Shown: positions 4,481 through 36,817 of the stretch, piece after piece
Layout of the letters: every line of letters begins with the position of its first letter
Position numbering within the stretch: the stretch's first letter is position 1
NCBI GenBank assembly: GCA_004524535.1
Contig: SDNY01000021.1
Location: forward strand, 1 to 38,737
Direction: 5' to 3'
From: Promethearchaeota archaeon
GTDB lineage: Archaea > Asgardarchaeota > Lokiarchaeia > Sigyniarchaeales > SOKP01
Length of the DNA stretch: 38,737 nucleotides
Notes under the pieces: generated by a model
The model's database searches: none
Told to the model about the DNA's origin: nothing
The model's input: the letters and a program-made list of their open reading frames with translations, nothing else
Made by a program: the position numbers and the translations under genes

Positions 4481-4720
4481 TATTAAATTAACCTAAGGTT
4501 TTTTTTAAATTTATATCAATATTAAAAAATTGAATTTAATTAGTTATAATAATTTACTTTTTAATTAGAAATGATATGACCTAATTATTTTTTCATATCT
4601 CTCAATTTCTACATTTTAGTAAGTAAAAAAAGCAAATTTATATTTTTAACAAATCTTTTTATCTAATATGCTCTCATGATTTAAGAGGGTCTAGAGAACA
4701 AATAAGACACGGAAAAATTT

Positions 4721-5320
4721 ATGATACCCCCTTCAAATAACCGTTATGTTTTTAAGATATGCATTTTAGGATCTGGAGGAATCGGGAAAACCTGCTATGC
4801 AAATAGGCTTTGCTTAAATAAATATGATGATAATACGAAATTGACTATTGGAATTGATTTTTATAGTTATGAACTTCCAATTATAATTAAGAACAAGGAT
4901 TCACTCGTCTCTGTTACAATCTGGGATTTTGGAGGGCAAGAACAATTTCAAATACTATTTCCTTCTTATATTAGTGGTGTGAGTGGTGTATTAATGGTCT
5001 TTTCTCTCATTAATATGCAAAGTTTAATCCGATTGGATTGGTGGTACGAACGACTTTTTAAAAATGTTGATAAAAATAAAGTTCCTCGAGTTGTGTTAGG
5101 GACTAAGTACGACTTAATTCAAACTGCATCTGAAATTAGATCTGAACTTGGTCCTGATAAAATTAATGATTTAGTAATTGATCAATTCTTATATAGACAT
5201 GATGAGAAGGATTTTTTCAGATGCTCTTCAAAAGAAAATTACAATATTTCCAAGAGTTTTAAAGTTCTCATAAAAAAAATATTGGATACTCAAAATATGG
5301 ATTATGATTGGATTCCTTAA
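4721..5320 (+). CDS. Ras-superfamily (Rab-like) small GTPase
   Basis: G1 GSGGIGKT, G2 TIG, G3 WDFGGQ, G4 TKYD, G5 CSSK; no C-terminal prenylation cysteines. Confidence 0.9.
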   Translation: MIPPSNNRYVFKICILGSGGIGKTCYANRLCLNKYDDNTKLTIGIDFYSYELPIIIKNKDSLVSVTIWDFGGQEQFQILFPSYISGVSGVLMVFSLINMQSLIRLDWWYERLFKNVDKNKVPRVVLGTKYDLIQTASEIRSELGPDKINDLVIDQFLYRHDEKDFFRCSSKENYNISKSFKVLIKKILDTQNMDYDWIP

Positions 5321-5467
5321 AGTGATTTGATTCATTTAAATTCATCAGTTACTATTTAACTTAATCATTTTACATCTTTTATCTATAAGTAAAAATAATT
5401 TAGTATAGAAAAAAGGAGATTTTTTTATATATTATTTTGAAATTAATGCCAAACTATTATAATATTT

Positions 5468-5863
5468 TTAAAGTGATAAAAATTCTTCTTTTGACATATA
5501 CTGTCTATGCTTCTGGTCTGCCCATAGTTTACGATAAAAGTAGAAATATTCATATAAATCGTATTTATTTGGGGAATATATTAATATTCCATTTTCGATT
5601 ATATCGATTTTTATATGTAGAGGTAATTCTGAAAAAATGCGTATATCATATTTTTTTTTCACTACATTAATATTCCCTACTATAAACGATAATAATTCAA
5701 AATTATCTTCATCCGGAGCGACGATGCAGATATCTACATCGCTCTTGATGGTCTCTTGATCTTTTGCTAAAGATCCATATAATAATATCCCAATAATCTT
5801 CCTTTTTTCTATTATATATAAGAAATCGTTGTAAATTTCCTTTATACGCTCTTTTGCAGCCAA
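5468..5863 (-). CDS. mntA: Minimal nucleotidyltransferase (MNT) antitoxin
   Basis: GS-x10-DVD motif (YGSLAKDQETIKSDVDI); overlaps the HEPN gene. Confidence 0.88.
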   Translation of the reverse strand: MAAKERIKEIYNDFLYIIEKRKIIGILLYGSLAKDQETIKSDVDICIVAPDEDNFELLSFIVGNINVVKKKYDIRIFSELPLHIKIDIIENGILIYSPNKYDLYEYFYFYRKLWADQKHRQYMSKEEFLSL

Positions 5864-6279
5864 CTATCAATAGCCTCTTTATATTTTTCTAGCTCTTCTA
5901 GATATTTTTGAATGCTTTTAAACGCAATTTCTTCATCAAGACTATTATAACTATGAACTATTCTATTTCTTAAACCATTTGCTTGTTTCAAATTATACGA
6001 TAAATCTTTAGAAATAATTCCTTTTTCTGCTAAAACATCGAGGTTAATATAATCATCTTTTGGAATTACTTTTAAATCCTTTATAATCATGGCTGTTAAA
6101 TCTGTTATTATTTCCAGTATAATTTGGTAAGCGTGATATATCGAAAATTGTTCTCTTAAAGTTAATTTAGTAATAAATTCTTTTTCATTTAAATCTTTAG
6201 TCCATTCTTTTAATTTTCCAATTAATTTTGCAAAATATTCTTCTTTTTCTTTATAACGTTGAACTCGTTCTTCATTCAT
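5842..6279 (-). CDS. hepT: HEPN (DUF86/HepT-like) ribonuclease toxin
   Basis: R-x4-H-x-Y motif (LRNRIVHSY); paired with MNT. Confidence 0.88.
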   Translation of the reverse strand: MNEERVQRYKEKEEYFAKLIGKLKEWTKDLNEKEFITKLTLREQFSIYHAYQIILEIITDLTAMIIKDLKVIPKDDYINLDVLAEKGIISKDLSYNLKQANGLRNRIVHSYNSLDEEIAFKSIQKYLEELEKYKEAIDSWLQKSV

Positions 6280-6338
6280 AATATCATAAATTATTATTTC
6301 TAATTATTTGAATTTTTCTTACTTTTTTACTTAATAAT

Positions 6339-6470
6339 TATGAAAAGAGTAAGCTTGTTCGAATCTTGATAAGGCTTGAGGATAAAGTATATTCATTTAC
6401 GATCCCTCTAGATGGAAATCAAGTAGTGAGTGTCTCAAAAGATAATACTGTAAAAATTTAGGATTTATAA
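6339..6470 (+). pseudogene. Degenerate single WD40 repeat remnant
   Basis: Frame reads YEKSKLVRILIRLEDKVYSFTIPLDGNQVVSVSKDNTVKI*DL*, matching the WD40 consensus with TAG at the Trp position. Confidence 0.7.
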
Positions 6471-6514
6471 GAAGCAATAAAATAATTTTATTTTATTAAA
6501 TTCTTTTTTAGAAT

Positions 6515-7246
6515 TTATTCCAATAGTTCTTCTAATTCTCTATCAGAAAGAAATCCTTTATATTGCATTTTTTTTCTAATTTTTTCTAAAATATCTGTAG
6601 TTGAATGAGAAGCTTCTGTTTTTTTTTCTAAAGTTTCAAATTTTTCAGTTAAATCATTCAATTCATTAACCTTGGTTTTTAAATTACTTTTATAACTTTC
6701 AATTTCTTTCTCCTTCTCTTTTAGCTGGTGTGTCAAATTATTTGATTGTTCTGCCATTTTACTTAATTTTTTATCTTTTTCTTCTAACTCAGATTTTATA
6801 TTTTTTATGCCGCTCATTTCCTCTTCTTTCTTTTTTAATTCCTCTTTTAATCTTTTTATTTCATTATCCTCTTCTTTATTTTTTAATTCCTCTTTTAATC
6901 TCTTTATTTCATTCTCCCTTTCTTTAAGAGTTTTTTTCAATTTAGAAGCCTTTTCTGAAGAAGTATCCAACTTTATTATTTCATTAGAAACTTTTGTCTC
7001 AGATTCTCTTAATTTCTTTTTTAATTCTGCTATTTCATTTTCCCCTGAAGCATTTTTTTCGTTTAACTCATTTAAATTTTTTACTGTAGCTTTTAGTTTT
7101 TCTTTAGTTAAGATTAGTTCTTTTTTATTTTTATCTAAATCTTTAGCCAAATCGTTAACTTTCGTTCTAAACTCTAATAGAATTCTTCCCTCTACTTTTT
7201 GTGCTTTTTTAGGGGATTCCTTACATTTAACCCAATCAATACTAAT
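6515..7246 (-). CDS. Coiled-coil protein; ORF probably extends upstream of the called TTG (7150) to an ATT at 7246
   Basis: E/K-rich heptads; frame open for 32 more codons (xSIDWVKCKESPKKAQKVEGRILLEFRTKVND); AGGTGA SD-like site 6 nt upstream of the ATT. Confidence 0.7.
   Translation of the reverse strand: MSIDWVKCKESPKKAQKVEGRILLEFRTKVNDLAKDLDKNKKELILTKEKLKATVKNLNELNEKNASGENEIAELKKKLRESETKVSNEIIKLDTSSEKASKLKKTLKERENEIKRLKEELKNKEEDNEIKRLKEELKKKEEEMSGIKNIKSELEEKDKKLSKMAEQSNNLTHQLKEKEKEIESYKSNLKTKVNELNDLTEKFETLEKKTEASHSTTDILEKIRKKMQYKGFLSDRELEELLE
6819..6913. repeat. 48-bp-period tandem duplication inside the coiled-coil gene
   Basis: NEIKRLKEELK(N/K)KEE encoded twice with near-identical DNA. 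Confidence 0.85.
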
Positions 7247-7382
7247 TTTTCTTCACCTAATATCCTTAATCACAAATAAAATTAGAATAAGACAATATTA
7301 ATTGGTGATTTATTAAATATTATTTTTATCTTTTTTCAATAAACTAAATGAAACTACTTTTTTGATATTATAATCCATTATT

Positions 7383-8399
7383 TTAAAATGAAGTGCCTTC
7401 CAAGATTGGATTATTCTCTGATTTGTATTTAACTAAAGTTAAAGCGCCTCTTACACCAATTTCATCTCTATATTTTGTTATTTTTATTTTAGGGGGATGA
7501 TTTATTGTAAATTTAATTGGATCTTTCTCAAATTGTTCAATTAATGGGGGAATTATTTGCATTTCATCCTTTATCATAGCACCCCCAAAATATATAGTTG
7601 AAACATCGTAATAATTGTTAATCAATCCAATACCAACCTTACAATAAAATATGCACTCATCTACAATTTTTTTAGAAAGTATGTCTCCTTCTCTTGCTGC
7701 TTGAAATACTTCTTTAGCAGTAATTTTAGATTTGTTTCCATTTACTATACCTAGTAAAATATCTGCGTTTAACTCCCCATCGTTTAATGCGTTTAATGTT
7801 CTTAGTTTAACTCCTGTACCTGAACTATAGACTTCCCAGCATCCATATGCACCACAATTACATTGGATTGTGCTTTTTGGTTCAACTATTCCATGTCCAA
7901 TTTCAACCGCATTTCCCTCCTTTCCAAGTAATAAGTGACCATTACAAATAGCTCCTCCTCCAACTCCGGTTGATACTGTAATATAAACAAGATTCTCTTT
8001 TTCATCATCATCCGCTTCAAAATATTGGACTCCTAATACTGCTGCATTACAATCATTAATTAAATATATCGGAATTCCTGGGAATTTTTCTTCAATGGGC
8101 CCTTTTAAGGGTATGATTCTAAAGCCTAAGTTTGGATTGTTAAAACCTTCACCCTTAATAATATCAATAGGGCCTGCCATGGCTAACCCAATCCCGATAA
8201 TCTGTTCATTTTTAATATCATTTTCTGATAATAACGCAGATAACAGCTTAACCACAGAATTACTTATTGAGTATTTATTTTCCTTTAAGGTTTCTGTGAT
8301 TTTAATTTTAATGTTTTTATCTATTAAATCTGGTGTACATATCGCAACTCGAATCCAAGTGCCACCAATATCTACTCCTACGATGAATTTTTCATCCAT
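7383..8399 (-). CDS. ROK family sugar kinase (glucokinase-like)
   Basis: VGVDIGGT, NDCNAA, STGVGGG, EIGH and CNCGAYGCWE Zn motif. Confidence 0.9.
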   Translation of the reverse strand: MDEKFIVGVDIGGTWIRVAICTPDLIDKNIKIKITETLKENKYSISNSVVKLLSALLSENDIKNEQIIGIGLAMAGPIDIIKGEGFNNPNLGFRIIPLKGPIEEKFPGIPIYLINDCNAAVLGVQYFEADDDEKENLVYITVSTGVGGGAICNGHLLLGKEGNAVEIGHGIVEPKSTIQCNCGAYGCWEVYSSGTGVKLRTLNALNDGELNADILLGIVNGNKSKITAKEVFQAAREGDILSKKIVDECIFYCKVGIGLINNYYDVSTIYFGGAMIKDEMQIIPPLIEQFEKDPIKFTINHPPKIKITKYRDEIGVRGALTLVKYKSENNPILEGTSF

Positions 8400-11482: not shown

Positions 11483-14400
11483 ATGAAAAATAATAGAGAA
11501 TCCGAAAAACAATATAGAAACTTTCTAGAGAATCTGAATGACATCGCTTACGAAACAGACAAATTTGGCAATATAACTTATTGTAATAAGATTACAGAAG
11601 AAATAAGTGGTTTATCTATGGATAAAATAATAGGATATAATTTCTTACACTTGTTTTCAGAAGAAAATGGGAAGTTAGCATTAGAAAATTTTACTAAAAC
11701 TCTAAATGGAGAATCTCCTACATTTGAACTAACCTTTATCAATAGTGGAAAAATTTGTCAGTTTAGTAATAAACCATTGAAAAATGATAAAGAAGAAATT
11801 ATTGGTGTATCTGGTATTGCAAGAGACATCACCGAACGCAAGAAGGTGGAGCACGAATTAAAAATATATCAAGATCACCTTGAGGTATTAATAAATGAGA
11901 AGACTAAAGAATTAAAAAAATCAGAAGAAAATTATCGTATAATTACGGAAACAGCTAATGATTTAATCCGCATTCTTAACGATCAATTTAAAATCGAATA
12001 TGTTAATGAATTAACTCATTTAAGAATATTAGGATATTCAAAAGATGAAATGATTGGAAAGTTTGCTGGAATTTTTATGCATCCAGATGAGTATGAACAA
12101 ATTGGCAAATATGCATTTGAATTCCGAAAATATGGATCTTCTAGTCGTGAAGGAAGATTTAAGCATAAAAATGGAATTTGGATCTGGATGGATATTAAAA
12201 GTAAAAGGTATTTTGATAATGAAGGAAATTTGAAAGTATTAACGATTTCAAGAGAAATCACAGACCGTAAAAAAGCAGAACAAAAATTAAAAGAATCAGA
12301 AGAAAGATATCGTATAATTATGGAAACAGCTAATGATTTAATCCGTGTTCTTAACGATAAAGTTGAGATCGAATATATTAACGAATCAACTCATTTAAGA
12401 ATATTAGGATATTCAAAAGATGATTTGATTGGAAAATTCCCGGGAATTTTTATCCATCCAGATGATTATAAACACATGAGTAAATACGTAATTAAACTCC
12501 GAAAAGAAGGATACTACCAACGTGAAGTAAGATTTAAGCATAAAAATGGAACTTGGATCTGGATGGATATTAAAAGTAAAATGTATTTTGATAATGAAGG
12601 AAATTGGAAAGTATTAACGATTTCAAGAGAAATTACAGACCGTAAAAAAGCAGAACAAAAATTAAAAGAATCAGAAGAAAAATTTAAAGCACTTTTTAAA
12701 GGAGGGCCAGTTCCAACATATACATGGCAAGAAGTAGGAAATGATTTCAAATTAATTAATTATAATAATGCTGCGGAAAAATTTACTCTTGGAGATGTGA
12801 AAAAATATTTAGGATTAAAAGCTTCTGAGATGTATAAAGATCGACCTGAGATCTTAAAGGACTTGCATAGTTGTCTTGAAAAGAAAATCAATATTACTCG
12901 TGAGGTGAAATATTATATCAATATTTTAAAAGAAGAAAAAGATCTTTTAGCGAAATATAGTTATATCCCTCCAGACTTGGTATTAGTTCATACAGAGGAT
13001 ATTACAGAAAGAATAAATGCAGAGCAAAAATTAAGAGAATCTGAAGAGAATTATCGTAATATGATTAATAATTTAGATATTGGTTTCTATAAGGGTGAAT
13101 TTAAAGGAAAATTATTAATGCATAATCCTGTCTTAAATGAAATCCTTGGAATTGATCCTTCAAAAAATTTAATTGGCTCAGAGGCGTCTAAATTCTTTAT
13201 TAATCCCGAAGATCAAGAAATCTATTATGAACGATTAATCAATCAAGGATTCATTAAGAATTTTATTATTCAATTAAAAAAAGTAAATGGAGAAAAAATA
13301 AATGTAGAAATAAACGCTCATATGATTTATAATATTGAAGGGAAGCCAAAAGAAATTGAAGGTACAGCCGTGGACATCACCGAAAAATACAGATTAGAAC
13401 AAAAATTAAAGGATTCTGAAATAAAATATCGACATTTATTCGAAAGTTCTCCATACGTTATAGGATTATTAGATCTGAAAGGAAATTTAATAGATTGTAA
13501 CAATGCTGTAAATAAATTACTTTATTTACAATCTAAAGAAGATATAATTGGAAAAAATTTCAGAGAACTTTTTTCAGTAACAAATAAAAACAAACATCTT
13601 ATTCCGATATTCGAAAGAATTTCCAATATAATAAGCAATGGTGATAATACAGAGACGTTTGAATTTCTATTGAATAGGTCTATTGGAGATGTTATATGGC
13701 TAAGTTTAGATTGTTCTTTAATAAAAATAGAAAAAGAAACCCTAATACAAATCATAATCCAAGATATAACAGAACGTAAGAGTTTTGAACAAACTTTAAA
13801 AAGATCTGAAGAAAAATTTCGCTTTCTTTTTGAGAATACGCCTAGTTCTATACTTTTAATAAATCCTGAGGGGATAATTGTTGATTGTAATCCCGCAACT
13901 GAAAAAATAACTGGATATAAAAAACAAGAATTAATAGGCAGAAACTACAGAAATCTCTCTGCAATCGCGCCTAAATATATAGAAATAGCAGATTCTCTTT
14001 TCAGAGAATTCTTTGAAGGAAGAGAACTACATCGTTTAGATATACAACTCTACCATAAAGAAAATCGCTTGATATGGGTAAATTTACAATCATCACTTGT
14101 GAAAATCGGGGAAAAAAGATATTTGCAGTTACTTATGAATGATATTACTGAGCGTAAAAACGCCGAGGCTTTAGTAAAAGAAGAAATTAAAAAATTAAAA
14201 GAATTAGATCAAATTAGAAAAAATCTAATTATTAGAGTATCGCACGAGCTTAAAACCCCCTTAATTCCAGTATGTGGAGGGACTGAGCTTCTTTTAGATG
14301 AATATGAAGAAAAATTATTAGAAAAGGGAATTAGTGAGATAATAAGGATGATTGACAGGGGAGGTCGACGATTAAAATCGTTGATTAACAAATTACTTGA

Positions 14401-14905
14401 CTTATCTCGACTAGAATATGGTATGCTTTCATTGGAAAAACAAAAAAGCAATTTAAGCGAGATAATAAAAGAATGTTCCGCTGATATGACCTTTTTAATT
14501 AAAAATAGAGATATCACGCTTAATCTTGAGATTCCAGACAATTTTTATTTAGATATAGATGCGATGAGAATTAATCAAGTAATTACAAACCTTTTGTCGA
14601 ATGCCATTAAAAACACACCACCTCAAGGTAAAATATCCGTATTTTTAGAAAAAGATAATAATTGGGCAAAAATGACTGTAGCCGATACAGGAGTGGGTTT
14701 AACTAAGGAAGAGATGGCCATAATTTTCAATAGATTCAGTAAAATAGAAAGAAATGAAAAAGGACTTGAATATATAGATATTACAGGCTCGGGATTAGGC
14801 TTATTTATTTCAAAAGAAATTATAGATTTACATGGCGGCAAGATTTGGGTTGAATCTAAAGGGAGAGGATTAGGAAGCAATTTCATAATTGAACTACCTA
14901 TTTAA
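11483..14905 (+). CDS. Cytoplasmic sensor histidine kinase with about 7 PAS/PAC domains
   Basis: Repeated DITERK/EITDRK PAC ends; H-box VSHELKTPL, N-box NLLSNAIK, G1 DTGVG, G2 GSGLGL; no transmembrane segment seen. Confidence 0.93.
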   Translation: MKNNRESEKQYRNFLENLNDIAYETDKFGNITYCNKITEEISGLSMDKIIGYNFLHLFSEENGKLALENFTKTLNGESPTFELTFINSGKICQFSNKPLKNDKEEIIGVSGIARDITERKKVEHELKIYQDHLEVLINEKTKELKKSEENYRIITETANDLIRILNDQFKIEYVNELTHLRILGYSKDEMIGKFAGIFMHPDEYEQIGKYAFEFRKYGSSSREGRFKHKNGIWIWMDIKSKRYFDNEGNLKVLTISREITDRKKAEQKLKESEERYRIIMETANDLIRVLNDKVEIEYINESTHLRILGYSKDDLIGKFPGIFIHPDDYKHMSKYVIKLRKEGYYQREVRFKHKNGTWIWMDIKSKMYFDNEGNWKVLTISREITDRKKAEQKLKESEEKFKALFKGGPVPTYTWQEVGNDFKLINYNNAAEKFTLGDVKKYLGLKASEMYKDRPEILKDLHSCLEKKINITREVKYYINILKEEKDLLAKYSYIPPDLVLVHTEDITERINAEQKLRESEENYRNMINNLDIGFYKGEFKGKLLMHNPVLNEILGIDPSKNLIGSEASKFFINPEDQEIYYERLINQGFIKNFIIQLKKVNGEKINVEINAHMIYNIEGKPKEIEGTAVDITEKYRLEQKLKDSEIKYRHLFESSPYVIGLLDLKGNLIDCNNAVNKLLYLQSKEDIIGKNFRELFSVTNKNKHLIPIFERISNIISNGDNTETFEFLLNRSIGDVIWLSLDCSLIKIEKETLIQIIIQDITERKSFEQTLKRSEEKFRFLFENTPSSILLINPEGIIVDCNPATEKITGYKKQELIGRNYRNLSAIAPKYIEIADSLFREFFEGRELHRLDIQLYHKENRLIWVNLQSSLVKIGEKRYLQLLMNDITERKNAEALVKEEIKKLKELDQIRKNLIIRVSHELKTPLIPVCGGTELLLDEYEEKLLEKGISEIIRMIDRGGRRLKSLINKLLDLSRLEYGMLSLEKQKSNLSEIIKECSADMTFLIKNRDITLNLEIPDNFYLDIDAMRINQVITNLLSNAIKNTPPQGKISVFLEKDNNWAKMTVADTGVGLTKEEMAIIFNRFSKIERNEKGLEYIDITGSGLGLFISKEIIDLHGGKIWVESKGRGLGSNFIIELPI
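11921..12680 (+). repeat. 375-bp tandem duplication of one PAS-PAC module
   Basis: Units start at 11921 and 12296 (tcagaagaaa...), with long identical DNA stretches such as TGGATCTGGATGGATATTAAAAGTAAAA. Confidence 0.92.
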
Positions 14906-14988: not shown

Positions 14989-15378
14989 TTGCCGTCAATT
15001 ATTAAACAATTTTGGCTTTTTTCAAAGGATGGGCTTCCAATAGCGGAATTTAGTGGCGACGAGCAAACCTTAGATAAAACACTTATGGGGGGGATAGTGT
15101 CAGCCATTAAAACCTTTTCTCAACAACTTACAAGTAAGGGTTTACAAAGTTTAATGTTAGAAAACGATAAGCTAAGTTTCGGAAAGTCGCACGATGGTAA
15201 TGCTATTCTTGTTTTTAGAACTAGTTCTAAAATTAAAGATAAAAAGATACAAAAAGTATCTAAAAATATTGTTGAAATCTTCGAAGAATTATACGATGTC
15301 AATGATATTTTATCTTGGGATGGAGATGTCAGATATTTTAATGGATTTAAGGAGAAACTTCAAAAATTCCTCAAATAA
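14989..15378 (+). CDS. Stand-alone longin/roadblock-like domain protein (Asgard-type)
   Basis: FWLFSKDGLPI...LMGGIVSAIKTFS...WDGDV pattern, similar to the C-terminal domain of 16270..17922; TTG start. Confidence 0.7.
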   Translation: MPSIIKQFWLFSKDGLPIAEFSGDEQTLDKTLMGGIVSAIKTFSQQLTSKGLQSLMLENDKLSFGKSHDGNAILVFRTSSKIKDKKIQKVSKNIVEIFEELYDVNDILSWDGDVRYFNGFKEKLQKFLK

Positions 15379-19518: not shown

Positions 19519-20808
19519 TTATTTTACTTCGCTTAACTCTACTCCCTTGGTCTCTTTTAAGAATAAGTAGTTTATTGGTATTAGCACGAACAAAATGATT
19601 ACAAAAACAATAAATGTGGTAGCTAAACCGACAATTAATATAACTGCACTGCTTAATAATAATCCAAATGTTCCACCAATAGAGGCAAATACACTTCTTA
19701 ATCCTAATCCTGATCCTCTTCTCTCAGTGGGCAAAAGTTCTAGGGCTGAAAGTCTAAGCATTCCAAATAGACCCCAATAAGAAATATGAGTAGTAGCGTA
19801 TCCTATTTGAACTAGAATGAACGCATAGTTAGGATTTTGAGCTCCAAAAACCCATAGTATAACAGATGTAGGAAGGGATATTGACCATAGATAAATTAAA
19901 GGTTTCCTTCCCAATCGATCGGATAGTATGCCATTTGCTAAATATGCTATTATAACAGCAAAAACAGTCCATAGAAAAATGATTGATATTTGAATTTGGC
20001 TCAATGTAGCTAAGTCGGATACATATTTCTCGAAAAGGAGCATATAGACAGCAGTAAACCCGAAGATTAGGCTCATGATTAGGATGGCTGTGTAAGATTT
20101 ACGATTTTCTGTTTGAAAAATAGCTTTTATATCTTCTTTAAATGATTTTTTTTTCTTTAGAGTCCCATCTTCTTTCATTAACTGATATTTTGATGATTCT
20201 TTCAGAGTCAAAAGGATAAATATGCTTAATGGAACCCCTATAATTATAGGAAAAAGCATCATTGCCCTCCAATTCGAAGCTGTATCTGTTATAAAAATAG
20301 AACGCAAAATCACCATTATAAATGCACCAATTAATCCAGCCAATAAAATAATATTCGTGTAGAACGCGCGCTTCTTTTTATCGGACTCTTCATTGATATA
20401 AATTAACCATACATCTGAACGCTGAAAAAAACCGAGGAGGAGCGCTAATATTACATACATAATATAAGTCGTAGATAGTATTATTAAAAAACATGTGGCT
20501 CCCATACCTAAAACTGTAATGGCAAGCATTATTTTACGACCTAATTTATCTGTGAGATATTGACTAAAAAAGATCAAATATGCTCCAATAGAAGATATGC
20601 CTGCTCCTAGAGCCAGTATAGCATTCTGTTCGTTTTCAGTGTATTCACCTAAAAATTCTTTAGCGATTTGAGAAGGGATAGCACCTAGCACCACTGTACA
20701 GTAGGTATCTACTATTTGTACTAGCATTAATACAACAATTAAAAATATGAAGTAAGCTCTTGTTATTGAGATTTCTTTTGAAATATCAGTATTATTTTTT
20801 TCAGACAT
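19519..20808 (-). CDS. MFS transporter
   Basis: LTDKLGRK, LSDRLGRK and ELLPTERRGSG motifs, LKETKG at the C-terminus, ~12 TM. Confidence 0.88.
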   Translation of the reverse strand: MSEKNNTDISKEISITRAYFIFLIVVLMLVQIVDTYCTVVLGAIPSQIAKEFLGEYTENEQNAILALGAGISSIGAYLIFFSQYLTDKLGRKIMLAITVLGMGATCFLIILSTTYIMYVILALLLGFFQRSDVWLIYINEESDKKKRAFYTNIILLAGLIGAFIMVILRSIFITDTASNWRAMMLFPIIIGVPLSIFILLTLKESSKYQLMKEDGTLKKKKSFKEDIKAIFQTENRKSYTAILIMSLIFGFTAVYMLLFEKYVSDLATLSQIQISIIFLWTVFAVIIAYLANGILSDRLGRKPLIYLWSISLPTSVILWVFGAQNPNYAFILVQIGYATTHISYWGLFGMLRLSALELLPTERRGSGLGLRSVFASIGGTFGLLLSSAVILIVGLATTFIVFVIILFVLIPINYLFLKETKGVELSEVK

Positions 20809-20963
20809 AATTGATATATCTACCTATTTAATATATAAATCTTGCATTAGGATTAATATTGCCTAATTAATTTTAATTTAAAATTATAAAGGAATTTAAT
20901 ATGAGCGAAAAAGAAGTGAATTTAAAAAAGCGAAGCGATGAATTATTTGAAACAATTAAAAAA
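20795..20963 (+). repeat. Left copy of an imperfect direct repeat (MFS start, divergent promoter, first 21 codons of ilvD)
   Basis: Ungapped alignment to 23430..23598 at offset 2635; by hand count 13 mismatches in 20806-20865 and 4 in 20866-20963. Confidence 0.92.
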
Positions 20964-20969
20964 CTTTAA
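20901..20969 (+). pseudogene. Truncated 5' stub of ilvD (MSEKEVNLKKRSDELFETIKKL*)
   Basis: First 21 residues identical to the protein at 23536. Confidence 0.9.
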
Positions 20970-21036
20970 AAAATAAATATTTATAGAACGACAATATTAT
21001 AACAAATGTAATCAAGTAAAACAATGATAATTAATT

Positions 21037-21927
21037 ATGTCAGAAAATTCATTTGATAAATTTAAATATGTATTAAAGGAAGATTTAAAATCTTATCTCA
21101 ATGGTTTAAATGATTTAGATTTCGGATTTTGTAATATTTTAAGTAATCGTATAATGACTAATTCACTAATCTTAAACTCTAAGATTAATGCACTATTGGG
21201 AGCAGTTTTAAAAGAAATAACTTACGAATTTAGATTTTATAAAGAAGATGTAAATTTAAAAAGAGGTTTAAGAAAACTGAAAAAAATCCTAAATAATTAC
21301 ATCTCTGATAAATATGATTTAGATGCAAAAATGATTATGGAAGATTATCAAGATTATTATAATGAATTTAGGGATTTAATAAAAGTTGAACGAGAAATCT
21401 ATAAAGACAATCCAGAGTTTTCTCAATTTTCAATTAATTTTTGTCTTGAATTCTATATTAAAGAATTAAACTTTAATGATACCCCAGTTAATTTAGATGT
21501 TCTAGTTTTTGGAGTTCTTAATGAACTTAATAGGGTTATTAAAAGTCATGGTTCAACTTCTAAACAGTTGATGCTAAAAATCATTCTAAATTCTTTTGGT
21601 AGAATGCATGAATACTTTAGAATCTATCTACAATATGAAGAAGAAAAAATAAAGAGATGGAAAGAATCATATGATAAATTTAAGAAAAACTTATTAGATA
21701 ATCTAGAAAGATTTAATGATGATAAAGATTATATAGAAAACAGTATTGATTTTTTATTTGAGATTTGTAAAGAATGGAGATATATGTTTATTAGAATGTT
21801 GGAGATTCCAAAAATTTCAACTTCTGTTGTAGAAAAACAAACTACGGTTCCGAAAAAGGTAAAGGAAGATTTAGATGAAATAGTTTCAGAATTAATAGAC
21901 TCAAAACTAGAAGATAAAAAAGAATGA
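21037..21927 (+). CDS. Hypothetical protein, probably all-alpha (cassette gene 1)
   Basis: 296-aa ORF; ATGA overlap with the next gene; no motif recognised. Confidence 0.75.
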   Translation: MSENSFDKFKYVLKEDLKSYLNGLNDLDFGFCNILSNRIMTNSLILNSKINALLGAVLKEITYEFRFYKEDVNLKRGLRKLKKILNNYISDKYDLDAKMIMEDYQDYYNEFRDLIKVEREIYKDNPEFSQFSINFCLEFYIKELNFNDTPVNLDVLVFGVLNELNRVIKSHGSTSKQLMLKIILNSFGRMHEYFRIYLQYEEEKIKRWKESYDKFKKNLLDNLERFNDDKDYIENSIDFLFEICKEWRYMFIRMLEIPKISTSVVEKQTTVPKKVKEDLDEIVSELIDSKLEDKKE

Positions 21928-22952
21928 CTGAAAAGATAAAGAAATCTTTTGATTTTAAAAATATTTTAGTTGAGATCGAAAAATTTAATCCCCATTGTAC
22001 TCGAGAGGAAATTATCAAATCTATAGGGAGTCACATCACAGATATTTATTATACGAGAGTCAATGAGCTTGGATTAAAAGATAAGTTAGATCGGTTTGCC
22101 CGAAAAAAATTATTATTACAGAGAAGTAGACAAGCTAAAAAAGCTCAAGTATTGACGGACTCTAAAATAAAAAAGGATGAAATGATTTCAGAATATAAAG
22201 GGATTAAGTCAATACTAACAGGCTTATCAAAATCCTATGCTTATAACAATGCATATTTTGATACAAGAGAAATTGATAAATTTAGCGATTCTGACTCATC
22301 AGATTTCATGATTAATGGAGAGTCTGTAAATCTATTGAAGGATAAAGATGACTTACTACAAGCTAGTTTTAAACCCAAGTTAGAAGAAGATCTTAAAAAT
22401 ATTGACAGAGAGTCTAAAAGCAGTAATTCATTAATTAAAGAAGATATCGAATTATATGATCAAACAGTTGTAATTGAAGGATTAGAAACAGAACCACTTT
22501 TTCCACTTGAAGATGAAGATGTTTCCTTAATTGATAATTTTGATGAATCGTTCTTTTTCAATAATAGACAATATCAAACTTTAAAGGATGAAATTTATAA
22601 TTCAAGAAAACATATTTTAAGTTTAGGGGAAAATTGGAATGGAGAAGGGAGTAAAGCGTTTAACCTTGAAGTCTGGAGGTTTGCTTCAGATTTTTTAATT
22701 AATTTCTTTTACAAATTTAATTTAAGACATTCATTAAATCTAAAAGTTCCTAATATTTTACCAGTTGGAGATTTAAGTATTGACATTCATTGGAAAACTG
22801 AAGAAATGGAATTAACAATCAATTTTTCTGAAGAGTTCTTAAATTTACCCAGTTTTTATGGAAAGGATAATAAAAATAATGAAATCCAAGGAATTATTGA
22901 TATTGATAAAATTCATACTGTGATTTTTCCATGGTTAAAAAACTTCCGTTAA
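21924..22952 (+). CDS. Hypothetical protein with acidic middle and a C-terminal NWxGEG...P.I.P.GD.SIDIHW domain (putative antitoxin/partner; cassette gene 2)
   Basis: 342-aa ORF; overlaps both neighbours; C-terminal pattern resembles an uncharacterised family I recall upstream of ART-like genes. Confidence 0.6.
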   Translation: MTEKIKKSFDFKNILVEIEKFNPHCTREEIIKSIGSHITDIYYTRVNELGLKDKLDRFARKKLLLQRSRQAKKAQVLTDSKIKKDEMISEYKGIKSILTGLSKSYAYNNAYFDTREIDKFSDSDSSDFMINGESVNLLKDKDDLLQASFKPKLEEDLKNIDRESKSSNSLIKEDIELYDQTVVIEGLETEPLFPLEDEDVSLIDNFDESFFFNNRQYQTLKDEIYNSRKHILSLGENWNGEGSKAFNLEVWRFASDFLINFFYKFNLRHSLNLKVPNILPVGDLSIDIHWKTEEMELTINFSEEFLNLPSFYGKDNKNNEIQGIIDIDKIHTVIFPWLKNFR

Positions 22953-23353
22953 AAGTCAAAAATCTTCCAAATATGGATTTTTTATTCAGAAATTTCAACC
23001 TTAAACTAATTGTTAAACCTAGGGGATACAATGCTCATGAAGTGCCAATAAATGCTTTTAGGGATGAAAATGGAGATGGAATATCTACCGCTTGGGAAAA
23101 ATACTGTAGTGCAAAAAAGTTAAGACGATTAGCAAGGGTACCTAAATTTAATGGAGTAATTAAAATGAATGCTGGAAACATTCGTAAGATTCCCTCCTTA
23201 GAGGTTGTCCATAATCCAACAATGAGAAATTAAGGTCATTCTCTAATAAAAGGATTACCTAATAATCGAGCAGAAAGATTAAAAATAAGAAGCAAATTAA
23301 AAAATATTGCTAAATGGGTAATACCTCTAAATATGGATTTGATTGAATCTTAA
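22931..23353 (+). pseudogene. Putative ADP-ribosyltransferase/RES-like toxin interrupted by an in-frame TAA at 23231-23233 (cassette gene 3)
   Basis: LFR...P..AF...GIS..W...GVI...V.H.P..N*GH..I.G pattern; frame continues 39 codons past the stop to TAA at 23351-23353. Confidence 0.6.
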
Positions 23354-23429
23354 TATAAAATCTAATTAATAATTTGAACGATATTTCACAATTTTCTCGG
23401 TTTAATAATAGCCATTTATTAAATATGCT

Positions 23430-23598
23430 TTTTTTTCAACCATAATTCATATATCTATTTATTTATTATATAAATATTACATTTGAAGTATTATTGTTTT
23501 ATTAATTTTAAATTAAAATTATAAAGGAATTTAATATGAGCGAAAAAGAAGTGAATTTAAAAAAGCGGAGCGATGAATTATTCGAGACAATTAAAAAA
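23430..23598 (+). repeat. Right copy of the direct repeat (MFS stub MVEKK on the - strand, promoter, functional ilvD start)
   Basis: Ungapped match to 20795..20963. Confidence 0.92.
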
Positions 23599-25206
23599 AC
23601 ACCATTTGTATATGCCACCTTAGGGATTATTAGCGGGTTAGGTTTAGAAGAAAAAGAGATTTATAATAAACCTTTCATCGGAATTGTGAACACTTGGAAC
23701 GAAATCAATCCCGGGCATATGCATCTACGTTCTTTAGCCGAGGCTGTTAAGCTTGGTATTGCTGAGGCAGGGGGGATTCCACTTGAATTTAATACTATTG
23801 CACCTTGTGACGGATGGGGTAATGCAAATGTAGGCATGCGTTTTATACTTCCTCAGAGAGAAATAATTGCCGATTCTATTGAAGCCATGGTTGAGGCACA
23901 TCGACTTGATGCTATAGTTACTCTTTCGAGTTGCGATAAAATTAATCCCGCCGTTCTAATGGCCGCTGTAAGGTTAGATATTCCCACCATTTGCGTGCCG
24001 GGAGGACCAAATCTATTTAAAGTTGCATTTTCCCCTGAATATAAAGGAATAGATGTAAAATGCTACGATGATTTCAAACAAAAACCAAGATGTATCTCAT
24101 GTGCTACTCCAGGCGCGTGCGAATTTATGGGTACTGCGAATACAACTCAAGCCTTGATGGAAGTTTTTGGAATGACGCTCCCAAATGCAGCTACAACTCC
24201 TGCATTTACACGCATGAAATATATAATTGCAAAGAATTCGGGAAGAAAAATTATGGATTTACTTAAAAAAGGAATAACTCCTTCGCAGATAATGACTGAA
24301 AAGTCTTTAGAAAACGTTATGATTGCTGATGCTGCTATTGGAGGGTCCACAAATGCGACATTACATATTCCCGCAATAGCCCACGAAATGGGTTTGGATT
24401 TTGATATAGAAATTTTTAACGAGTATAGTAAAAAGATTCCTATGATTGTAAATGTGTCACCTTCAGGTGAATATGGGGTTGTAGATCTCTATAATGCTGG
24501 AGGAATTCCTGCTGTGTTAAATCGAATCAGGGATTATCTTAATTTAGATTGTATGACAGTTTCAGAAAAACCAATTGGTAAGCTAATTCGAAGAACTAAA
24601 GGTTTAGACGATAAGGTTATTAGGCCATTGGAAAACCCTGTGTATCCTGAAGGCGGAACCGTGATATTAAAAGGTAATTTAGCTCCTAAGTGTGCAGTTG
24701 TAAAACAATCTGCTGTTACTAATAGGAATATGTTGCAATTTGAGGGGCCTGCTAAAGTTTTTGATTCTGAAACTGACGCAATCAATGCTTTTGCTAAGCG
24801 AGAAATAAAAAATGGATCTGTTATTGTTGTTCGCTATGAAGGTCCAAAAGGAGGGCCCGGAATGCCTGAATTAGTTGGTTTAACAACCAATTTAATGTTG
24901 AGAAATGATATGAATGAGGTTGCCTTAATAACGGATGGTCGCTTTTCAGGAGCTACCCAAGGTCCTTGCATAGGACATCTATGCCCTGAAGCGTATGTGG
25001 GAGGACCGATAGCAGTTGTTCAAGATGGTGATATTATAAAAATTGACATACCTAATAGAACCCTTAATTTTGATGTATCCGATGATGAAATTAAGGAACG
25101 GTTTAAAAATTGGAAGCCATTTGAAAGAGATATTAAAAGTAGAGTATTATTAAAATATAGAAAATTGGTTACAGATTCATCTAAAGGCGCAATTTTAGAA
25201 TTTTAA
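23536..25206 (+). CDS. ilvD: IlvD/Edd family dehydratase (dihydroxy-acid or sugar-acid dehydratase)
   Basis: PCDG, CDK, GACEFMGTANT, GGSTN, GNLAP, RYEGPKGGPGMPE and TDGRFSG motifs. Confidence 0.9.
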   Translation: MSEKEVNLKKRSDELFETIKKTPFVYATLGIISGLGLEEKEIYNKPFIGIVNTWNEINPGHMHLRSLAEAVKLGIAEAGGIPLEFNTIAPCDGWGNANVGMRFILPQREIIADSIEAMVEAHRLDAIVTLSSCDKINPAVLMAAVRLDIPTICVPGGPNLFKVAFSPEYKGIDVKCYDDFKQKPRCISCATPGACEFMGTANTTQALMEVFGMTLPNAATTPAFTRMKYIIAKNSGRKIMDLLKKGITPSQIMTEKSLENVMIADAAIGGSTNATLHIPAIAHEMGLDFDIEIFNEYSKKIPMIVNVSPSGEYGVVDLYNAGGIPAVLNRIRDYLNLDCMTVSEKPIGKLIRRTKGLDDKVIRPLENPVYPEGGTVILKGNLAPKCAVVKQSAVTNRNMLQFEGPAKVFDSETDAINAFAKREIKNGSVIVVRYEGPKGGPGMPELVGLTTNLMLRNDMNEVALITDGRFSGATQGPCIGHLCPEAYVGGPIAVVQDGDIIKIDIPNRTLNFDVSDDEIKERFKNWKPFERDIKSRVLLKYRKLVTDSSKGAILEF

Positions 25207-33658: not shown

Positions 33659-35182
33659 TTAAATTTCTAAAATGCCGTCCCATGCTTTACGTTCTTTATC
33701 TAAGAGTGCATTTTCAACTTTCCATTCAGTTCCAAGGACCATTGTCGCTCTCTTCTTAGTATCATAAGCTGGCCACTCGGGAATGTCTTTATGGTTAGGA
33801 TTTCCAGTATGAGCAAACGCAATCCAAGTATCCATCATCTTTTCACTGAGTAAATCCGCATCTGGACCTTTACCAAAAAAAAGATCAGCTTTAGGTACAT
33901 CAAGTGTACCAAAGGCAAAAGGAATTTCCATGGCATGGCAAGAACCTAATTTTCCTTTAAATGCTGGTGAAGGCCATGTAAAAAAATAATTGTATACATT
34001 TGAGTTATGGATCTGATGAGCTTCTGCAAAACGAATTTCTGGGATACGAAATACAAAATCAGTACCAATAGCATCAAAAATTTCAATAGGATTAGTAGAA
34101 GCTACATCTTTCATAGTGTCTTTATATACTTCAAGAATCTGCAAACTCTTAGTGTCATCGATATCCATTCTGCTTAAGAGAGCAGATATCAATCTAGGAA
34201 AAGTTTCTTCTTTTATTTCTTTAAATCTAGGATCTAATATCGTCCATAGTTTATATTCATCTTTATTACTTCCTATTAATAAATCAATATTTTTACCTGC
34301 TCCCTTTCTTAGTGCTTCTAATGGATGTGTGGGAAGTACATCTCCATCAATACGGGGGCGAAAATCCATTATTTCATTTGTGCCCTCCTTTTCTAACTTA
34401 GCTAAAACCTTATCTTGAGCGGCAATTATTTTTTCGGGCGGAATCTTTCGAAGCGCATCGATATCTCCTTCCTTAATATCCAATTCACGAAATAAATTCT
34501 CAGTGCTTTTTCTTGCTGGTTTTGGCATAAGCATTGGCGCACTTTGAGAAATAACACGGTGGAAAAGTCCATTCGCAGCTGGCATAGCCATTAGAGTTAT
34601 AACTGAAATCCCTCCAGCCGACTCACCAAAGGTTAAAATATTATTTGGATCACCACCAAAGATTTCAATATTATCACGAATCCATTTAAGTGCAGCAATT
34701 TGATCTAACATCCCGATATTAGCAGTTACACCAGCAGCATTTAAAAAACCTAAAGCACCTAATCGATAATTAATAGTAACTACCACAACATTACCACGTC
34801 GGGTTAAATTTGAACCGTCGTAAATAGGGAACGCTCCACCCCCAGTAATGTAACCTCCCCCATGAATCCATACCATTACTGGACGTCTAGCATTATCAAT
34901 ATTAGGAGTCCATATATTTAGTGTTAAACAATCTGTTTCGCTTTGCCATCCTGGTTTTCCAAATAAGGCGTCAAGAGGAGAAAACCCTTGATATACATAG
35001 GGGCCATGTTTAGTAGCATCATGTACATTACTCCAAGCCTCTCTCTCAGCTGGTGGGCTAAAACGTAACCGCCCTACTGGCGAGGCTGCATATGGTATAC
35101 CCTTAAAGATTTGTATACCATTGTTAATATAGCCTTGAACTTTACCAGATTTAGTTTCAATAATATCAGTTTTTTCGTGCAT
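33659..35182 (-). CDS. Type-B carboxylesterase (pNB esterase-like)
   Basis: FKGIPYA, DCLTLNIW, WIHGGG, FGESAG, catalytic E (NKDE) and H (CHAMEIP). Confidence 0.93.
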   Translation of the reverse strand: MHEKTDIIETKSGKVQGYINNGIQIFKGIPYAASPVGRLRFSPPAEREAWSNVHDATKHGPYVYQGFSPLDALFGKPGWQSETDCLTLNIWTPNIDNARRPVMVWIHGGGYITGGGAFPIYDGSNLTRRGNVVVVTINYRLGALGFLNAAGVTANIGMLDQIAALKWIRDNIEIFGGDPNNILTFGESAGGISVITLMAMPAANGLFHRVISQSAPMLMPKPARKSTENLFRELDIKEGDIDALRKIPPEKIIAAQDKVLAKLEKEGTNEIMDFRPRIDGDVLPTHPLEALRKGAGKNIDLLIGSNKDEYKLWTILDPRFKEIKEETFPRLISALLSRMDIDDTKSLQILEVYKDTMKDVASTNPIEIFDAIGTDFVFRIPEIRFAEAHQIHNSNVYNYFFTWPSPAFKGKLGSCHAMEIPFAFGTLDVPKADLFFGKGPDADLLSEKMMDTWIAFAHTGNPNHKDIPEWPAYDTKKRATMVLGTEWKVENALLDKERKAWDGILEI

Positions 35183-35241
35183 AATATTATTTATTAACCA
35201 CTATTTATTAAATAGAGATAAATAGAAAAAGTTGAAAAACA
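35180..35241. repeat. Upstream/promoter region homologous to 36815..36876
   Basis: cataatattatt...tattaaat..agataaat.gaaaa.gttgaaaaaca is shared by both esterase upstream regions. Confidence 0.8.
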
Positions 35242-35299
35242 ATTCTAAAATCACAAATCAGGGAATTAAAAAAAAAGATAAAAAAAAAATAACTCAATT

Positions 35300-36817
35300 T
35301 TAGACTTCTAAAAGTCCATCCCAAGCAGCTCTTTCTTTATCAAAGAGTGCATTTTCAACTCTACATTCTTCTGCTAAGATCATTGTTGCTCGTTTTTCAG
35401 CGTCATATGCAGGCCATTCGGGGAGTCCATCATGGTTGGGATTGCCAGTTTTTGCAAATGCAATCCAAGCATCCATAATTTTTTCGGATAATTCACGAGG
35501 AGCCCCTTTAACAAAATCTTTTAGAACTGGATTATTAAGAGTTCCAAATACAAATGGAAGCTCCAATGCATGACATGCACCTAATCTGCCATTTAGTCCA
35601 GGAGATTTCCAATCAAATAAATAATTATATGTGTTAGGTTGGTGTGGTCTCTGAGCCTCAAGCAGGCGGATTGTAGATATACGGAATGCATAATCATTTA
35701 CAAGGGCGGTAAAAAGATCTGTTGGTTCATTTGAGTATTTTCCCTCTCTTGCTTCTTTATAGACATCAATGATTTTAGCGCTTCTCTCTGAAGGGATTCC
35801 TGCCATTCCTAAAAATCCGACTAAGAGTTTTACAACGTCACCATCTTCTATTAAGTTTTTCAACTGTTCTTGTTCAGAAAATAGTTTAAACTCATCCATA
35901 TTAGACCCAATCATAAAATCTATATCAGCACAGTCTCCATCTCTAAAAGCTTGCAATGGATGCTTAGGCCAAATATTACCATCAATCATAGGTCTTAATG
36001 CCATAATATTCGTGGGATCAGCTTCAAATACCGCATTTTGAGCGTCAATGATTTTTTCGGGAGGAATTTTAAGGAGATCTTCGAAAGTCCCTTTTCTTAA
36101 ACCTAATTTACGCATCATCTTCTTAGTAGTTTTGTCATCTATTTCAGGGGGAATAGTTGGGGCACTCTGACCAATAACCCTTCGAAATAATCCTTTTGCG
36201 TCTGTCATTGAGCATAAGGAAACTACAGAATACCCTCCTGCAGATTCACCAAAGATTGTTACATTATCAGGATCACCACCAAATTTAGAAATATTTTCAT
36301 TGACCCATTTCAATGCGGCTATTTGGTCAAGAGATCCTACATTAAGAGTCTTTTTTCCTTTAAAATTAAGGTACCCAAAAGAGCCTAACCTATAGTTAAT
36401 CGTGACTATTACAATGTTACCACGCTTAGCTAAAGCAGATCCATCATATATTGGATTAGCACCTGTTCCGGTAATGAAGGCGCCACCATGTATCCAAACC
36501 ATAACAGGACGTTTTCCATCATCAGTTGCGGGAGTCCAAATATTTAAATTTAAGCAATCTTCATCTTCTGGGCCATCTTTACCAAGAAATTCTTCGAGTT
36601 GTGTGTATCCTTGCCATGCAACATTCCCATATTTAGTTGTTTCGAGCACATCATCCCATGGTTTCTTAGCAACGGGGGGGAGAAACCTTAATTCTCCAAT
36701 TGGAGGTTCTGCAAATGGTATATTCTTAAATATCTCTAATCCATCTTCTTTGTAGCCTTGAATCTTTCCAGATTTAATTTCAATAATATCAGTTTTTTCA
36801 ATAATTTCTGTTTTCAT
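35300..36817 (-). CDS. Type-B carboxylesterase, tandem paralog
   Basis: EDCLNLNIW, WIHGGA, FGESAG, NMDE and CHALELP motifs. Confidence 0.93.
   Translation of the reverse strand: MKTEIIEKTDIIEIKSGKIQGYKEDGLEIFKNIPFAEPPIGELRFLPPVAKKPWDDVLETTKYGNVAWQGYTQLEEFLGKDGPEDEDCLNLNIWTPATDDGKRPVMVWIHGGAFITGTGANPIYDGSALAKRGNIVIVTINYRLGSFGYLNFKGKKTLNVGSLDQIAALKWVNENISKFGGDPDNVTIFGESAGGYSVVSLCSMTDAKGLFRRVIGQSAPTIPPEIDDKTTKKMMRKLGLRKGTFEDLLKIPPEKIIDAQNAVFEADPTNIMALRPMIDGNIWPKHPLQAFRDGDCADIDFMIGSNMDEFKLFSEQEQLKNLIEDGDVVKLLVGFLGMAGIPSERSAKIIDVYKEAREGKYSNEPTDLFTALVNDYAFRISTIRLLEAQRPHQPNTYNYLFDWKSPGLNGRLGACHALELPFVFGTLNNPVLKDFVKGAPRELSEKIMDAWIAFAKTGNPNHDGLPEWPAYDAEKRATMILAEECRVENALFDKERAAWDGLLEV

Follow-up and report, generated by a model that had tools for sequence, protein, structure and literature searches.

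The window analysed here is a stretch of 38,737 nucleotides, low in GC content (~30%), from a Promethearchaeota archaeon (contig SDNY01000021.1). Between a gene for an MFS transporter (19519-20808, minus strand) and one for a dehydratase of the IlvD/Edd family (23536-25206; Pfam ILVD_EDD_N and ILV_EDD_C over 23536-25203), it carries an insert of three overlapping genes bounded by a direct repeat. According to the list of open reading frames (ORFs), genes 1 and 2 lie on the plus strand at 21037-21927 and 21924-22952 and encode 296 and 342 amino acids (aa), respectively. Gene 3, on the same strand, runs from 22931 to 23233 and yields 100 aa up to an in-frame TAA, beyond which its reading frame continues to a stop at 23351-23353, giving 140 positions in total. 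The overlaps measure 4 nt between genes 1 and 2 and 22 nt between genes 2 and 3. Two related loci, L001 and L002, were retrieved in a genome scan with the gene 3 alignment. The conserved core of the module consists of the C-terminal domain of gene 2, termed g2C, and gene 3, and profile searches identify this pair as a remote Asgard-archaeal relative of PDC-M32, a two-gene phage-defence candidate of PADLOC-DB v2 that is itself untested. The features of the locus are listed below in window coordinates.

20795..20963, no strand assigned: left repeat copy, with the MFS/dehydratase intergenic region in full between 14 nt of the MFS 5' end and a 5' piece of the dehydratase gene
20902..20970, plus strand: remnant of the dehydratase start, 21 matching codons, one extra codon and a stop, aligned with 23536 onward
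20962..23371, plus strand: portable module of 2.41 kb, delimited by blastn homology to L001 6038-8440
21037..21927, plus strand: gene 1, a variable accessory gene of 296 aa without known family
21924..22565, plus strand: N-terminal part of gene 2, residues 1-214, differing between loci
22566..22952 (stop codon included), plus strand: g2C, residues 215-342, supported by family searches, an AlphaFold2 model and the match to PDC-M32A
22931..23353, plus strand: gene 3, candidate effector and PDC-M32B-related small alpha/beta protein, 140 codon positions, broken at codon 101
23231..23233, plus strand: in-frame TAA at codon 101 of gene 3, Tyr in homologues
23430..23598, no strand assigned: right repeat copy, comprising the promoter region and the start of the intact dehydratase gene

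A portable module bounded by a direct repeat

An earlier note on this DNA, made from its letters, had described a repeat-bounded insert with three overlapping genes as its whole cargo, the last of them broken by a stop codon, and this account of the layout stands. The coordinates and overlaps are exactly as claimed, and every motif quoted for genes 2 and 3 is present in the translations. Computed isoelectric points (pI) agree with the acidic middle that had been seen in gene 2 (residues 91-214, pI 4.15, preceded by a basic head at residues 1-90 with a pI of 9.6) and with the basic character of gene 3 (pI 10.65), and the frame of gene 3 is open on both sides of the TAA. The insert holds no further supported ORF of at least 60 aa, no tRNA and no Rfam match; indeed, neither a tRNA, as a possible integration target, nor an Rfam family was found anywhere across the window.

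The two copies of the repeat are 169 nt long and 89% identical, with ~96% identity over the last, promoter-proximal ~100 nt and ~75-80% over the distal ~67 nt. The repeated unit comprises the complete divergent intergenic region between the MFS and dehydratase genes together with the first 21 dehydratase codons. Because the whole intergenic region is duplicated, both of these genes keep an intact upstream region, and an additional copy of the dehydratase promoter region and of the 21 codons precedes the three-gene module. With its length of 169 nt and its 89% identity, the repeat is too long to be a target-site duplication. A repeat of this kind would be left by a single crossover if a circular DNA, bearing the module beside a diverged copy of the same intergenic region, recombined with the chromosome; no recombinase is carried by the module. 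Neither L001 nor L002 has a long repeat bounding its module, indicating that the 169-nt repeat is specific to the window locus. Directly upstream of the module in L002, whose first gene starts at 6647, lies a 61-nt tandem direct repeat (6405-6465 and 6501-6561; 92% identity, spacing 96 nt).

L001, on a 326-kb Promethearchaeota contig, contains the same three genes in the same architecture. Window positions 20962-23371 align with L001 6038-8440 in one blastn block, 84.0% identical over 2413 nt, whose left edge coincides with the end of the left repeat and whose right edge lies 58 nt short of the right one. The flanks of L001, an AsnC-type regulator upstream and a sugar-kinase-like gene downstream, are unrelated to those of the window; the module is a portable unit of 2.41 kb. 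By blastn, L002 shares with the window only positions 22577-23344, that is, g2C and gene 3. Its gene 2 encodes 239 aa with a different N-terminus, and the position of gene 1 is taken by an unrelated 218-aa ORF, for which descent from a diverged gene 1 was considered and rejected (BLASTP E=6.8). In all three loci, genes 2 and 3 are adjacent on the same strand and retain the 22-nt overlap.

The ratio of nonsynonymous to synonymous substitution rates (dN/dS), computed between the window and L001, is 0.10 for gene 1 and 0.16 for gene 2 as a whole, with 0.10 in its C-terminal domain against 0.20 in the remainder. For gene 3, the ratio is 0.27 before the stop and 0.22 after it. All three genes are under purifying selection and are more than chance ORFs. 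Searches of Pfam, NCBIfam and PHROGs returned nothing for any of them, with gene 3 also read through its stop as X. Gene 1, a variable accessory gene outside the conserved core, is 84% identical at the aa level to its L001 counterpart. It also lacks matches in PADLOC and among PDB sequences, no sequence-homologue search having been run for it, and the ESM Atlas gave no usable match. Its proposed role as a sensor or chaperone gained no supporting evidence, and the gene is replaced by an unrelated one in L002.

The g2C-gene 3 core and its link to PDC-M32

The N-terminal part of gene 2 has no family match and no match among PDB sequences, and is not conserved in L002 or in bacterial relatives. 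It is followed by g2C, a conserved domain with the pattern NW[DN]GEG...SID.HW...FYGDD. A profile restricted to this domain retrieved 42 proteins at E<=0.01, 25 of which are distant: they are 225-281 aa long and carry the domain of ~120 aa at their C-terminus, behind N-terminal halves that are mutually unrelated. A gene 2 profile searched against PDB sequences returned coiled-coil noise only (gp41 chains). The AlphaFold2 model of g2C, built from 41 sequences, reaches a predicted local distance difference test score (pLDDT) of 93.1 and consists of two long helices, a five-stranded sheet and a C-terminal helix. Two weak structural neighbours, which we treat as leads only, are inhibitor-complex chains: 7zhm_C, an 87-aa chain of the TreTu-TriTu toxin-immunity complex (target-normalised TM-score, TMt, 0.53; E 0.28), and 1lqm_H, the Ugi inhibitor of the UDG-Ugi complex (TMt 0.45).

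The proposal that genes 2 and 3 form a functional pair is strengthened by the conserved overlap, by natural fusions and by a predicted complex. In P0088 (122-241 and 252-369) and P0133 (56-170 and 178-302), g2C is followed by the gene 3 domain within one chain. The complex predicted for the L001 proteins has an interface score (ipSAE) of 0.88, the best of three controls scoring 0.00. A value of 0.88 is reached by 116 of 157 solved complexes and by 2 of 215 mismatched pairs, a calibration that holds only roughly because our own alignments were used. The prediction runs agree in at least 97% of contacts, with a pLDDT of at least 88 for the partners. On the g2C side, 11 of the 20 positions conserved at 90% or more fall within the predicted interface (W24, D25, E27, P66, S71, D73, H75, E82, Y98, G99 and G109); on the gene 3 side, the interface involves residues 23-33, 39-47, 68-73 and the helix 113-121, including the conserved R120. 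Collectively, these models predict that g2C and gene 3 bind each other. Adjacent, overlapping genes are the layout of type II toxin-antitoxin (TA) systems, binding of the products being predicted here and accompanied by the fusions. A further member of the g2C family, P0182 (252 aa), consists of two tandem g2C domains (2-120 and 121-236) and has no gene 3 domain.

The window's gene 2 matches PDC-M32A at E=1e-3 (16.2 bits; residues 231-329 against profile positions 265-356 of 375), and g2C alone does so at E=7.8e-4. The same family is matched by 34 of 41 g2C relatives, with a best E-value of 1.7e-7. PDC-M32B is matched by 13 of 128 gene 3 relatives at E<=0.01 and, among 120 non-Asgard relatives, by 21 at E<=0.05 (best 2e-6), over nearly the whole of profiles that are 123-131 positions long. 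The gene 3 relatives concerned were found by the Asgard profile at E ~1e-11 to 1e-14. The intact L001 gene 3 (P0003) does not match PDC-M32B at E<=0.1, and since the window's gene 3 does not match it either, the link on this side runs through the intermediate relatives. No other PADLOC family recurs; single matches were obtained to HEC-01B, GajA, a type I specificity subunit and DpdF.

Both core genes thus have counterparts in PDC-M32, in the order A then B, adjacent and on the same strand; the PDC-M32A profiles, 375 positions long, are matched by g2C over ~90 C-terminal positions. The two systems also differ. Only the C-terminal third of A is shared, and the similarity is remote, amounting to homology of a shared domain and not of full-length proteins. 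Moreover, the present module resides in an Asgard host, possesses an extra upstream gene and is not part of a BREX, DISARM or restriction-modification (RM) locus. PDC systems are described as a set of 145 untested candidates, some of one gene and some of several, which were identified by their location within BREX, DISARM or type I RM loci (bioRxiv 10.1101/2024.01.29.577857), and another report lists PDC-M32 only among PADLOC matches in Sinorhizobium prophages (PMC12429752). In the literature on PDC-M32, Asgard defence and toxins of the ADP-ribosyltransferase (ART) and KptA types, we found no description of the gene 2-gene 3 pair. The earlier view of an undescribed system is therefore only partly right: what stands at its core is a remote variant of a candidate pair that is already catalogued, though uncharacterised.

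The gene 3 family and its predicted fold

A word-indexed search recovered 13 intact homologues of gene 3, 132-145 aa long and 70-83% identical. In a profile search of 1.84 billion representatives, 497 relatives were found at E<=1e-3, 69 at E<=1e-10 and 2 at E<=1e-30; the best 150 of the 497 are nearly all stand-alone proteins of ~120-150 aa. Conservation was assessed across the 120 non-Asgard relatives in the numbering of L001 gene 3. It is complete at W55 and P96 (fraction 1.00) and nearly so at S52 and H103 (0.99), followed by I12 and R85 (0.96), H94 (0.95), Y58 (0.94), E10, P13 and F43 (0.93), R120 (0.92), N100 (0.89), R21 (0.81) and H23 (0.72). The Asgard clade retains most of the conserved positions and has LFRNFN in place of the family's LFxRVH and NYGH in place of NRAH.

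In the ESM Atlas, gene 3 falls among unnamed bacterial clusters only, the nearest named entry being DUF6098 at 0.93, a match flagged as often due to chance. Two of the 150 listed bacterial relatives, P0058 and P0044, were compared with plasmids by tblastn, and no match was found. Four weak Vibrio phage matches of P0044 (tblastn, E 0.07) were discarded as spurious, as they lie on the opposite strand of an annotated coding sequence. The domain also occurs at ~397-515 of P0099, a metagenomic representative of 749 aa, after a calcineurin-like (Metallophos) phosphoesterase region that matches PADLOC PDC-S60 at 7e-21; P0177 (206 aa) appears to be a piece of a protein built in the same way.

The fold of gene 3 was modelled on P0003, which is 82% identical to the window's copy, with an alignment of 128 sequences. 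The AlphaFold2 model (pLDDT 93.7; predicted TM-score, pTM, 0.87) has six strands and five helices and represents a confidently predicted and apparently new fold. Among the 44 PDB rows listed by Foldseek, the top ten by query-normalised TM-score (TMq 0.30-0.44) are all entries of the ART superfamily, namely, six rows for KptA/Tpt1, three for DarT and one for a chain of the VPA0770-VPA0769 RES-Xre complex (8gug), whereas the remaining listed rows have a TMq of at most 0.27. The best neighbour by TMq is the KptA/Tpt1 entry 9ldi (probability 0.63, TMq 0.44, E 0.64, root-mean-square deviation 3.9 A over 130 columns). Foldseek against BFVD was uninformative: the best match is an unnamed 149-aa viral protein (E 2.5e-3), and a phage 'putative RNA 2'-phosphotransferase' appears at rank 13 (TMq 0.28).

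ARTs of the R-S-E type carry Arg, Ser-Thr-Ser and Glu on strands 1, 2 and 5, respectively, the alternative triad being H-Y-E. In the gene 3 model, LFR lies on strand 1, ISTAW on strand 2 and H103 at the start of strand 5. The R, S and H positions that had been picked out by eye are therefore located on these three strands of a confidently predicted structure, and S52, H94 and H103 are 95-99% conserved. The ART triad is nonetheless incomplete: the strand-1 Arg and the strand-2 Ser-Thr are present, but strand 5 carries His103 (99%) and not Glu. The earlier ART/RES assignment of gene 3 thus survives insofar as the sole resembling structures belong to the ART superfamily, and is weakened by the absence of a significant match or a Pfam RES or ART family and by the change from Glu to His. 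Taken together, the ART-likeness of gene 3 is a suggestive and consistent hint that fails every significance test applied.

Possible workings of the module

The reading that we favour, tentatively and at slightly less than an even chance, is that gene 3 is an effector enzyme held inactive by g2C, with the variable N-terminus of gene 2 and gene 1 acting as trigger or specificity elements. The gene anatomy, the purifying selection, the portability, the family relations with their fusions and the PDC-M32 link are observed, the folds and the g2C-gene 3 binding are model predictions, and toxicity, chemistry, the direction of regulation, defence and the part played by gene 1 are inferences. Gene 3 would be an alpha/beta enzyme of ~130 aa with a divergent ART-like (KptA/RES/DarT-like) architecture, and its putative pocket would combine the strand-1 Arg, the strand-2 Ser-Thr, His94 and His103, Arg85 and Arg120. 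Such an enzyme might act on a nucleotide such as NAD+ and/or on a nucleic-acid phosphate, and would be toxic when released. Gene 2 would hold it in check through its conserved, rather acidic C-terminal domain, either as an antitoxin or as a regulator; the two genes stand in the type II TA order and are probably translationally coupled. Specificity or triggering may come from the two variable elements, the N-terminal part of gene 2 and gene 1 ahead of it, and the module as a whole may serve defence.

Several known systems offer partial parallels. RES toxins are NAD+-consuming ART-like enzymes, with VPA0770 as a RES-domain NADase toxin (PMC12204516). As in the RES-Xre pairs (VPA0770-VPA0769, MbcTA and ParST), the gene for a small candidate effector (~130-160 aa) lies downstream of that for a larger protein, here its predicted binding partner, and one chain of the 8gug complex is a weak neighbour of gene 3 (TMq 0.38). 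Unlike those pairs, neither gene 3 nor its 128 relatives match Pfam RES, gene 2 has no Xre/DUF2384-like domain, and the conserved residues of gene 3 are Ser, His, His and Arg rather than R-E-S. KptA/Tpt1, an RNA 2'-phosphotransferase of the ART superfamily, provides the best structural neighbour, 9ldi, by a match that is not significant; both have Arg/His-rich conserved sites without a catalytic Glu, and KptA has two lobes, gene 3 being a single domain of ~130 aa. CmdTAC is composed of an ART toxin, an antitoxin and a SecB-like chaperone. The module resembles it in having three co-oriented genes and a possibly ART-like effector, but gene 1 has no SecB or other family match and is not conserved with the core. 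Finally, CapRel is a fused toxin-antitoxin defence protein, to which P0088 and P0133 compare in uniting a presumed regulator and a presumed effector domain in one chain; there is no relationship in sequence or fold, and a sensing role for the regulator domain would be pure analogy.

Several observations weigh against an ART-like effector restrained by g2C. As regards the enzyme, gene 3 has no Pfam match at E<=10, RES included, and none of its 128 relatives matches any family; its profile finds nothing among PDB sequences; hhalign of the family profile with Escherichia coli KptA gives a probability of 0.1, that is, nothing; and Foldseek against the PDB returns no match at E<=1e-3 for the model (best E 0.39; all TM-scores below 0.5). 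The catalytic Glu of ARTs is absent, and the Asgard clade has in addition lost R21, H23 and R101, with R20 instead, so that the chemistry may differ or be lost. As regards the partner, the gene 2 relatives scanned have no Pfam match and the g2C model has no significant Foldseek match in the PDB (best E 0.032). S52, H94 and H103 are not among the named interface residues, leaving occlusion of the pocket by g2C unsupported, and g2C is unusually conserved for an antitoxin and is sometimes fused to gene 3, which fits a stable enzyme subunit equally well. As regards the link to defence, the window's gene 3, in both of its pieces, does not match PDC-M32B at E<=1, and no recognisable defence genes surround the module in the window, L001 or L002.

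Some of these observations lend themselves to the main alternative, in our judgement an unlikely one, in which g2C and gene 3 are subunits of a non-toxic accessory enzyme or regulator, concerned with nucleic-acid or nucleotide modification or repair and encoded in a mobile accessory operon, with g2C serving to complete or activate the site instead of blocking it. The natural fusions of g2C followed by gene 3 would suit such an enzyme, as would the purifying selection across all three genes, the lack of a defence-island context in all three loci and the strongly conserved polar residues of g2C (W24, D25, E27, D73, H75, Y98 and D101), many of them located in the predicted interface; KptA/Tpt1, nearest to gene 3 by structure, are not toxins. 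However, the pair is related to one picked up inside BREX, DISARM and RM loci, its distribution is patchy and portable with different neighbours, a hypervariable gene 2 N-terminus and a replaceable gene 1 are typical of conflict systems, and the nonsense mutation affects gene 3 only. Conserved g2C residues also raise the question of whether g2C is itself an enzyme, as in a DarTG-like arrangement where gene 3 would modify a target and g2C would both reverse the modification and bind the toxin. We consider this improbable: D73, W76 and G99 are invariant, D25, E27, H75 and D101 are conserved at 90% or more, and g2C is more constrained than the rest of gene 2, but these residues fall in the predicted protein-protein interface, g2C shows no similarity to macrodomains, ARH, NADAR or any other Pfam family, and its Foldseek resemblance is weak and directed to the inhibitor-complex chains. 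The effector might instead be gene 1, for example, as an all-helical HEPN-like RNase with the gene 2-gene 3 complex as its sensor or regulator. Its strong purifying selection, its 4-nt overlap with gene 2 and one R-x4-H string (RVIKSH), also found in the L001 homologue, speak for this idea, which nevertheless seems to us highly improbable, given that about 0.5 such strings are expected by chance per 296-aa protein (our own estimate), that no HEPN or other family match exists and that L002, the fused forms and, to the extent observed, the bacterial relatives lack gene 1, while g2C and gene 3 are always kept.

The stop codon of gene 3 bears on the state of the module in this organism. Where the window has TAA at codon 101, L001 and L002 read TAT, and Tyr is encoded in 13 of 13 homologues; the window's is the sole nonsense codon among 14 aligned copies. 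The truncated product is without the invariant His103 and without the helix 113-126, which holds much of the predicted interface. The stop is either a recent mutation or not real. Under the effector reading, a single-base nonsense mutation would have arisen recently in this genome, the effector would probably be dead and its partner gene 2 intact, and loss of the effector before its partner would be the safe order of decay for a toxin-antitoxin pair. We regard it as rather unlikely that the stop reflects an assembly or sequencing error or a polymorphism of a minor strain, with the module fully functional in the organism. The difference of a single base between TAA and TAT and the equal constraint on the 39 codons after the stop (dN/dS 0.22 vs 0.27) would be expected in that case, and the sequence appears to be metagenome-assembled, related records being metagenome-assembled genomes. 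No direct data counter this explanation, but a very recent mutation would look identical. The possibility of such an error or strain polymorphism counts among the points against the effector reading.

Elsewhere in the window, a gene for a HepT-like RNase (5842-6279, minus strand; Pfam HepT-like 5.6e-25) overlaps a nucleotidyltransferase gene (5468-5863; Polbeta/NTP_transf_2). The two constitute a TA pair of the HEPN/MNT type within a stretch of 23-26% GC (~4500-7500), below that of its surroundings. A small GTPase of the Ras/Roc/Arf family (4721-5320, plus strand; Ras 2.6e-29) and a Roadblock/LC7 plus longin-like protein (14989-15378, plus strand) are both signature proteins of eukaryote-like type, which fits an Asgard origin. 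The Roadblock/LC7 gene is directly preceded by a sensor histidine kinase gene (11483-14905, plus strand; 1140 aa) with at least 5 or 6 PAS domains, and two adjacent, paralogous genes of the carboxylesterase family, encoding 507 and 505 aa, occupy 33659-36817 on the minus strand (COesterase 2e-119 and 2e-117).

Our results place the PDC-M32 proteins within much larger families that have no Pfam model. They further indicate that a PDC-M32-type pair, predicted to form a tight complex and sometimes fused, reaches Asgard archaea as a portable 2.4-kb cassette. A more far-reaching view, which we hold to be doubtful, is that g2C and gene 3 define a large and as yet unnamed superfamily of two-component conflict modules, present in bacteria as well as Asgard archaea, with hundreds of clusters at 50% identity and no Pfam model. 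It would combine a minimal ART-like effector, with Arg, Ser and His and no Glu, that alters a nucleotide or nucleic-acid substrate by new chemistry, a new conserved inhibitor domain that silences it and a trigger formed by the N-terminal part of gene 2 and gene 1, and the present locus would be its first archaeal example. Should gene 3 prove harmless, the pair would still be a widespread uncharacterised two-subunit enzyme worth naming. Should it turn out to be an ART-like enzyme in which His takes the position of the catalytic Glu, the chemistry known from the ART superfamily would be widened.

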